Below, one piece after another: positions 50,544-50,929 of a DNA stretch of 64,000 bases. Positions within the stretch are counted from its first letter, which is position 1, and every line of letters begins with the position of its first letter. The translations under genes and the position numbers were made by a program. This DNA comes from Escherichia coli. GTDB lineage: Bacteria > Pseudomonadota > Gammaproteobacteria > Enterobacterales > Enterobacteriaceae. The notes under the pieces were generated by a model. It was not told where the DNA came from and did not search any database. It saw nothing but the letters and a program-made list of their open reading frames with translations. The stretch is from assembly GCF_016903815.1 (NCBI RefSeq), contig NZ_CP069973.1. One strand, given 5' to 3'.

Positions 50544-50605
50544 GTCTGTCGCTAGTTGTCGACCTCCGCCTGGGGCTTCTCATCCCCCCGGTCTATGCAA
50601 TATAC

Positions 50606-50635
50606 GAAAAAAAAGCTCGTACTTTCGTACGAGCT
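50606..50635 (-). terminator. serX intrinsic terminator
   Basis: On minus strand: hairpin agctcgtac-gaaa-gtacgagct followed by U8. Confidence 0.8.
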
Positions 50636-50647
50636 CTTCTTTAAATA

Positions 50648-50735
50648 TGGCGGTGAGGGGGGGATTCGAACCCCCGATACGTTGCCGTATACACACTTTC
50701 CAGGCGTGCTCCTTCAGCCACTCGGACACCTCACC
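50648..50735 (-). tRNA. serX: tRNA-Ser (anticodon GGA)
   Basis: Reverse complement GGTGAGGTGTCCGAGTGGCTGAAGGAGCACGCCTGGAAAGTGTGTATACGGCAACGTATCGGGGGTTCGAATCCCCCCCTCACCGCCA; long variable arm; CCA end encoded. Confidence 0.95.
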
Positions 50736-50929
50736 AAATTGTCGTTCCTGTCTTGCTGGAACGGGCGCTAATTTAGGGAAATCATGACCTGAGGTCAACA
50801 AACTTTTTTAAAAAATCGCTCGATTATTCAAACTTCAATCAATATGCAGTTTTAATAAGCGAAATTTGCTTTTTTTGCCACCGACCACGGATTTGTTATG
50901 CTGGTGGTCTTTGTAGATCATAACGATAA

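Follow-up and report, generated by a model that had tools for sequence, protein, structure and literature searches.

The junction between dgcT and serX

The window analysed here is a 64-kb stretch of an Escherichia coli genome in which the diguanylate cyclase gene dgcT and the tRNA gene serX are convergent and separated by a gap of 104 bp. The following features are located at and around this junction.

42401-48584, minus strand: pgaDCBA operon, from the open reading frames, collinear with the pga genes of MG1655
49176-50543, plus strand: dgcT (ycdT), diguanylate cyclase of 455 aa with a TGA stop codon at 50541-50543, from translation and Pfam
50501-50543, plus strand: lineage-specific 3' tail of dgcT, 3' of the GGDEF domain, with a product ending in VKEAEILINRKDDE before the stop; homology to K-12 stops at 50500
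50546-50647, minus strand: truncated RtT-type unit, the 3' trailer of serX, from Blast to the K-12 units
50606-50640, no strand assigned: putative terminator hairpin for the convergent serX and dgcT, from a terminator scan and folding
50648-50661, plus strand: attachment core TGGCGGTGAGGGGG, present once in the window and complementary to the final 14 nt of serX
50648-50735, minus strand: serX, tRNA-Ser(GGA), intact and single copy, from ARAGORN and Rfam (tRNA, 53.8 bits)
50770-50798, minus strand: tentative promoter-like site upstream of serX (TTGACC-17-TAAATT), from a consensus scan only
50969-51907, plus strand: ghrA (ycdW), core gene flanking serX on the opposite side, collinear with K-12 at 98%

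DgcT consists of a MASE4 domain (residues 41-274) and a GGDEF domain (residues 282-439) according to Pfam, and the gene is annotated at an equal length of 1368 bp in ST131 and KE51. serX is the sole tRNA gene within the window. A preliminary description of this locus had placed the end of dgcT at 50543 and about 100 bp, including the serX terminator, between it and tRNA-Ser, which agrees with the measured spacer and its hairpin. Identical 104-bp spacing between the two genes is found in one ST131 genome. From serX onwards, the window is collinear with the ghrA-ycdXYZ-csg region of K-12, and therefore no integrase is located on that side.

As minus-strand RNA, the spacer folds with -36.1 kcal/mol, corresponding to a z-score of -4.6 against shuffled sequences. 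The predicted intrinsic terminator at 50606-50640 has the form of a GC-containing hairpin followed by a U run. Its stem at 50614-50635 has a core of 9 bp, which increases to 16 bp when A-U pairs extend it, and the adjacent run at 50606-50613 consists of eight A on the plus strand and thus of eight U in the minus-strand RNA. On the 3' side of the stem, the serX strand continues with U8 and the dgcT strand with CTTCTTT. Judged by this structure, the hairpin would serve as terminator for both serX and dgcT. A urine isolate from Hungary, strain 47538, is 100% identical over a 1.5-kb query (window 49900-51400) and carries a 710-bp IS200C (L091 1043-1752) between the terminator hairpin and the 3' end of serX; this element is absent from the window, where the corresponding site is 50640/50641.

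The spacer is related to a repeat unit known from K-12. Between ycdU and serX, K-12 contains a tandem array of a 181-bp unit with 3.4 copies at 99% identity, and each unit terminates in the last 19 nt of serX. Window positions 50546-50666, comprising the spacer and the first 19 nt of the tRNA gene in plus-strand order, correspond to positions 61-181 of this unit and match three additional K-12 sites, which are the tandem unit copies. In the window, the truncated unit begins 2 nt after the dgcT stop codon. RtT RNA (RF00391), first described downstream of tyrT, is likewise a tandem unit of approximately 180 bp that ends in a copy of the 3' end of the upstream tRNA. The K-12 units reach 46.3, 46.3 and 36.1 bits against this Rfam family, for which the gathering score is 45 bits, and PGAP places the label 'RtT sRNA' at serX repeat units. 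In contrast to RtT RNA, the window has only unit positions 61-181, the serX trailer with its terminator, and no full RtT element. Within 50300-51000 of the window, Rfam returned no RtT match even at E <= 1, and the 104-bp spacer holds no full-length RF00391 match at or above the gathering score, by which membership in RtT RNA is defined. Among other known RNA families, sX4, MicC and the Thr leader stayed far below their gathering scores, and these sub-threshold matches stem from the hairpin and the end of the tRNA gene. Nothing specific to RtT in combination with serX was found in the literature searched.

The K-12 block and the OI-47 island

Except for a few indels, the whole window aligns collinearly with MG1655 (1,040,001-1,116,000) at 97-98%. 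Around serX, the pairwise alignment breaks at window position 50500 and resumes at 50546. This is in line with the statement in the preliminary description that K-12 has an IS3 copy, ymdE and ycdU between ycdT and serX which are missing here. In MG1655 (NC_000913.3), dgcT ends at 1094234 and serX starts at 1097565. The distance of 3,330 bp from the stop codon to serX is occupied by IS3D (1094245-1095502), the ymdE pseudogene, ycdU and the array of 3.4 units of 181 bp.

Several other differences between the two sequences are located elsewhere in the window. At 5938-5946, it is without the roughly 9-kb etk-etp-gfcEDCBA (group 4 capsule) operon and IS1D, which lie between appA and cspH in K-12 (MG1655 1041906-1050962). 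Between torD and cbpM, an IS3-family element of about 1.47 kb (17413-18880) encodes an orfA-like protein of 176 aa and an orfB-like protein of 240 aa, at a position where K-12 has only 92 bp; it is unrelated to the IS3D junction of K-12. The efeU gene at 37651-38481 is an intact frame of 276 aa that aligns over the full length to the annotated EfeU of a different E. coli with one differing residue, and the K-12 efeU is a pseudogene. Two short differences are possibly of the REP type: about 140 bp found only in K-12 between ymdF and rutG (24654-24689), and about 110 bp found only in the window between putP and efeU (37090-37234).

An intact island of about 33 kb with matching gene order from dgcT to ycdU is present in O157:H7 and in strain 4FM. 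Its genes comprise an EAL-domain gene, a winged-helix regulator, a fimbrial operon and a two-partner secretion pair, as well as acpS, an ACP gene, a FabZ-like gene, an SDR gene, two ketosynthases, an ABC transporter, a LolA-like gene and ycdU. The intact form of ymdE in this island encodes a 313-aa ACP S-malonyltransferase (Pfam Acyl_transf_1). Named by gene or function, OI-47 holds vmpA/EAL and grvA, with a fatty-acid/polyketide-like cluster and ABC/LolA-like exporters among these genes. The K-12 block is the remnant of an island, as had been supposed before, and its truncated ymdE' and ycdU correspond to the final 1.3 genes of the approximately 33-kb OI-47.

The sequences that flank IS3D in K-12, GGCATTT on one side and GTGCCTGG on the other, are separated by 31,742 bp in 4FM, and a 3-bp target duplication at the K-12 IS3D was not found. 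For these reasons, K-12 appears to carry an IS3-associated deletion of most of OI-47, with the IS at the deletion point, no duplication and an intact sequence in relatives. As in other IS3-associated adjacent deletions, IS3D sits precisely where 31.7 kb are missing; the window, in contrast, has no IS at the dgcT-serX site. The deleted length matches the published size of OI-47, which is 31,727 bp (z1528-z1556, containing grvA; PMC8565820), and the missing sequence is OI-47. The same OI-47 of O157:H7 EDL933 (z1528-z1556; vmpA, grvA) is missing from the window. Since OI-47 was defined against K-12, it does not include ymdE' and ycdU. With the window as reference, the island measures roughly 33.2 kb, starting at dgcT codon 442 and reaching about 130 bp past ycdU. 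Goldstone et al. reported that IS3 cuts ymdE short, that a longer 945-bp ymdE homologue exists outside phylogroup A, and that pgaABCD-ycdT-IS3-ymdE-ycdU acts as an island between efeB/phoH and ghrA (PMC4951805).

The left edge of the block also affects the product of dgcT. The final 43 bp of the gene differ between the window and K-12, and the divergence of the proteins starts 3 residues past the end of the GGDEF domain (residue 439). The C-terminus reads NKVVVKEAEILINRKDDE in the window and NKVVVRDVVNFCESP in K-12, where the MG1655 product has 452 aa. A tail ending in VRDVVNFCESP is common to K-12 and the OI-47-bearing strains. The nucleotide similarity between the two tails is weak, at roughly 50% when judged by eye from the alignment, and the K-12 tail might be a very divergent allele and not island-derived sequence.

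Both states are widespread. Among 5,426 complete E. coli genomes, the following counts were obtained.

Window-type dgcT tail and truncated-unit junction: 1,397 genomes
Contiguous dgcT-serX-ghrA: 1,157 genomes
K-12-type dgcT tail: 2,727 genomes
Intact OI-47 left end (mostly O157:H7): 388 genomes
Exact dgcT-IS3 junction of K-12: 2,299 genomes
ycdU at >=80% coverage: 2,608 genomes

Neither of the two DgcT tails was matched in about 1,300 genomes. In one example among these, phoH is followed by a DUF2726 gene and then by serX, and pga-dgcT is missing. The counts show that the block is not peculiar to K-12 and that the state of the window is common. The K-12 state, that is the IS3 remnant, is the commonest among sequenced E. 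coli. The OI-47 block is variably present, in about half of the genomes, and of mosaic composition, with a GC content of 0.35-0.53 in 3-kb windows. The identity of ycdU ranges from 97.8% to 100%. For the window-type junction, which is also found in UM146, full-length matches range from 94.4% to 100%, and this spread indicates that the haplotype is old. We take UM146 and ST131 to belong to phylogroup B2, O157:H7 to phylogroup E, and K-12, BL21 and W to phylogroups A or B1.

The order of the two states

For an outgroup comparison, loci were collected by a scan anchored on GhrA across GTDB species, with one genome for each; the 80 loci obtained include neither E. fergusonii nor the E. coli representative itself. 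The pga-dgcT block is missing from E. albertii, E. whittamii, two other Escherichia loci and Citrobacter, and only one non-coli locus of the 80 carries it. This locus, L010, is from a record labelled E. coli SCPM-O-B-8794 (NZ_JAATUR010000045.1), which is a separate species representative of a divergent Escherichia lineage. Its DgcT tail, ending in MTEAENLMNWKDDD, is orthologous to that of the window, and with the C-terminus NKVVMTEAENLMNWKDDD it is clearly of the window type. The alignment continues unbroken from the dgcT tail into the repeat unit, with 86.8% identity over 144/147 nt, and the dgcT stop codon of L010 is followed by the same unit start TCTGTCGCCAGTTGTCGA as in the window. The serX genes of both are 100% identical. 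Across the window and the 80 Enterobacteriaceae loci, the position at which the distal unit is truncated varies by lineage, and truncation at position 61 is confined to the window and L010.

Since loss of sequence in an ancestor with OI-47 could not have restored this tail together with this junction, the window very probably represents the ancestral, island-free pgaABCD-dgcT/serX junction, whereby OI-47 would have been gained in other E. coli and later reduced by the IS3 deletion. The orthologous DgcT tail and the shared unit junction of L010 thus support the earlier view that this strain shows the unoccupied site, with the polarity resting on one outgroup lineage.

The direction and order of events connecting these structures would be as follows. 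At the start, dgcT with its original 455-aa form of the tail would have been followed by the truncated RtT-type unit with the shared terminator and then by serX. In other E. coli, including O157:H7, K-12, BL21, W, O104:H4 and others, the approximately 33-kb OI-47 would have replaced the sequence corresponding to window 50501-50586, and its arrival would have given dgcT a new tail of 11 residues. A later IS3-associated deletion would have taken 31.7 kb and left IS3D, the 3' third of ymdE and ycdU, which is the state of K-12. The copy number of the RtT array would then have shifted by unequal crossing-over, with no extra units in the window and three in K-12.

The opposite direction, in which an ancestor with OI-47 or the K-12 remnant lost the sequence between the dgcT end and the repeat array so that the short junction is the derived one, is very unlikely. 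Deletions are frequent in this region, as the IS3-associated loss of 31.7 kb in K-12 exemplifies, and the tandem RtT repeats could favour them. Goldstone et al. also described pga attrition, with the whole of pgaABCD-ycdT-IS3-ymdE-ycdU missing in roughly 10-20% of phylogroup A genomes (PMC4951805). However, a deletion cannot give rise to a DgcT tail orthologous to that of L010, and the junction at unit position 61 is common to the window and L010 and to no other locus. No OI-47 remnants were found in window 50501-50647, which is therefore without a scar of the island, and the window-type junction is diverse, with 94-100% identity across its 1,397 genomes. A recent import of the L010 block from a B2-like E. 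coli is disfavoured, since the dgcT of L010 is only 80% identical to that of the window. The derivation of the short junction by deletion is thus already largely refuted by the outgroup junction.

One point counts against an ancestral state of the window. The core flanks of L010 and the window are 91-96% identical, and pgaB, pgaA and dgcT reach only about 79-80%. Due to this far greater divergence, the pga-dgcT block, its junction included, could have moved horizontally rather than being vertically ancestral. Between L010 2893-9243 and window 44134-50500, there is a sharp divergence step within the operon: pgaC and pgaD are 91-96% identical, and the pgaA-dgcT intergenic region is 71% identical.

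The tRNA end, its repeats and the phoH-serX interval

The tRNA gene itself is a proven attachment site. In O157:H7, two islands with a P4-family integrase, OI-43 and OI-48, are bordered by direct copies of TGGCGGTGAGGGGG, the 14-bp sequence in which serW/serX end (PMC3064760). In the UPEC strain KE51, similarity to the window ends precisely after the 14-bp core and is followed by an integrase gene, which lies 279 bp after dgcT. With KE51 and O157:H7 as occupied comparators, the window has the features of an unoccupied attB, namely an intact tRNA, a single 14-bp core, contiguous core flanks and no integrase nearby. A second copy of the serX 3' end was not found in the 64 kb, where a 24-mer (<=3 mismatches) and a 14-mer (<=2 mismatches) each match once; this is in agreement with the initial observation that neither an integrase nor a direct repeat of the tRNA 3' end is visible. 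With one core copy and no integrase, serX in the window is therefore an empty site for integrase-borne islands, e.g. OI-48/SpLE1 and SRL-PAI. It is the same tRNA gene, with an intact core, as that used by the P4-integrase islands at serX/serW, which include OI-43/OI-48, SpLE1/TAI, SRL-PAI and the UPEC PAI-serX.

The preliminary description had attributed the K-12 block to this kind of integration at the 3' flank of the tRNA. Under this explanation, the block is the remnant of a classical tRNA island that entered site-specifically at the serX 3' end, and the RtT repeats are leftover att sites. The use of the 14-bp core and a P4-type integrase by OI-48/SpLE1 and the KE51 island would fit, as would the three extra core copies between ycdU and serX in K-12. 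Even so, an entry of this kind is highly improbable. P4-integrase islands carry an integrase and the flanking 14-bp repeat, whereas the K-12/OI-47 block has neither and, unlike these islands, sits beyond the RtT unit(s). No integrase gene is annotated between dgcT and ycdU in 4FM, O157:H7 or K-12, so that even the complete 33-kb island is without an annotated tyrosine recombinase. The 14-bp core (<=2 mismatches) is missing from the dgcT-proximal end of the block in K-12 and 4FM and, as a result, tRNA 3'-end repeats do not bracket it; the core is located only on the serX side, at 7023, 7204, 7385 and 7566 in the K-12 sequence and at two sites beside serX in 4FM. The edges of the block correspond to window 50500, inside dgcT, and 50587, at position 102 of the distal RtT unit. 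Between the right edge and the tRNA end there are 61 bp in the shortest arrays, and in K-12 this distance is about 600 bp; the insertion point is thus not the tRNA 3' end. In O157:H7, the true integrase island is a separate element, OI-48, between ycdU and serX.

A search for a duplicated serX 3' segment in K-12, at the far end of ycdU, had been proposed. Three extra copies do exist; they lie between ycdU and serX, inside the RtT units, and not at the far end of the block. The serX-downstream unit is conserved across Enterobacteriaceae, and tandem units of the same form are also present 3' of serX in island-free E. albertii, Citrobacter, Salmonella, Enterobacter, Klebsiella and others, with <1 to ~4 copies. 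Therefore, the extra core copies of K-12 are not scars or att sites of OI-47. Taken as a whole, the preliminary conclusion of a remnant in K-12 and an unoccupied site here is retained, while integration at the tRNA flank has to be abandoned as its reason. The gain of OI-47 would instead be attributable to illegitimate or flank-homology recombination.

Loci of Enterobacter, Leclercia, Lelliottia and Klebsiella (L035, L039, L045, L051, L067 and L086; ~6.2-9.8 kb) have two tRNA-Ser(GGA) genes upstream of ghrA. The paired genes are 2-3.5 kb apart, each with its own full or truncated 181-bp RtT-type units.

The variability of the locus extends beyond OI-47. Together, pga and dgcT form a variable block of 8.15 kb (42395-50545) between phoH and the serX repeat unit, with a GC content of 0.438 compared to 0.53 to its left. 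In E. albertii, other Escherichia, Citrobacter and some E. coli without this block, homology jumps from about 42394 to about 50546. By comparison with E. albertii, other Escherichia and Citrobacter, the pga-dgcT block is itself an insertion. In some E. coli and E. albertii, a DUF2726 gene is located directly between phoH and serX, with no pga-dgcT (L003 6299-6985; L013 about 8000-9228), and this block meets the repeat unit at the equivalent of window 50572. Cimdins et al. described strains that lack the phoH-ghrA interval or vary in it (PMC5635171). The phoH-serX interval has thus long been variable, and it occurs in at least five content states.

Three unrelated blocks adjoin one ~40-bp stretch of the unit, namely pga-dgcT at 50546, the DUF2726 gene at 50572 and OI-47/ycdU at 50587. 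That the distal end of the serX RtT-type array is a recurrent, integrase-independent junction for incoming DNA is an unlikely proposition. The repeats could create a recombination hotspot, driven by breaks or by structure, to which the recurrent junctions would be due. Equally, they could be trivial, with the conserved tRNA trailer merely marking the edge of a variable interval.

The view that the two states are ancient alternative haplotypes, swapped by homologous recombination through flanking core genes and without polarity within E. coli, would accommodate the frequency of both (26% window type, 50% K-12/OI-47 type), the diversity within each (ycdU, 97.8-100%; window-type junction, 94-100%) and the five or more content states of the interval, but it addresses the spread of the states and not which was first, and as the outgroup L010 still polarises the junction, it is extremely improbable.

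OI-47, IS3D/ymdE', the RtT repeats and the serX islands are all already in the literature, and the differences at this locus are ordinary documented strain variation, so that the result matters little beyond correct annotation. With the window as the ancestral state, a polarity is given to a familiar oddity of K-12, in which IS3D-ymdE'-ycdU would be the stump of OI-47. The OI-47 of O157:H7, as defined against K-12, would then largely reflect a deletion in the K-12 lineage. The C-terminal tail of DgcT has two forms, which would be set by the history of the island, and the short junction of B2-type strains would be the original one.
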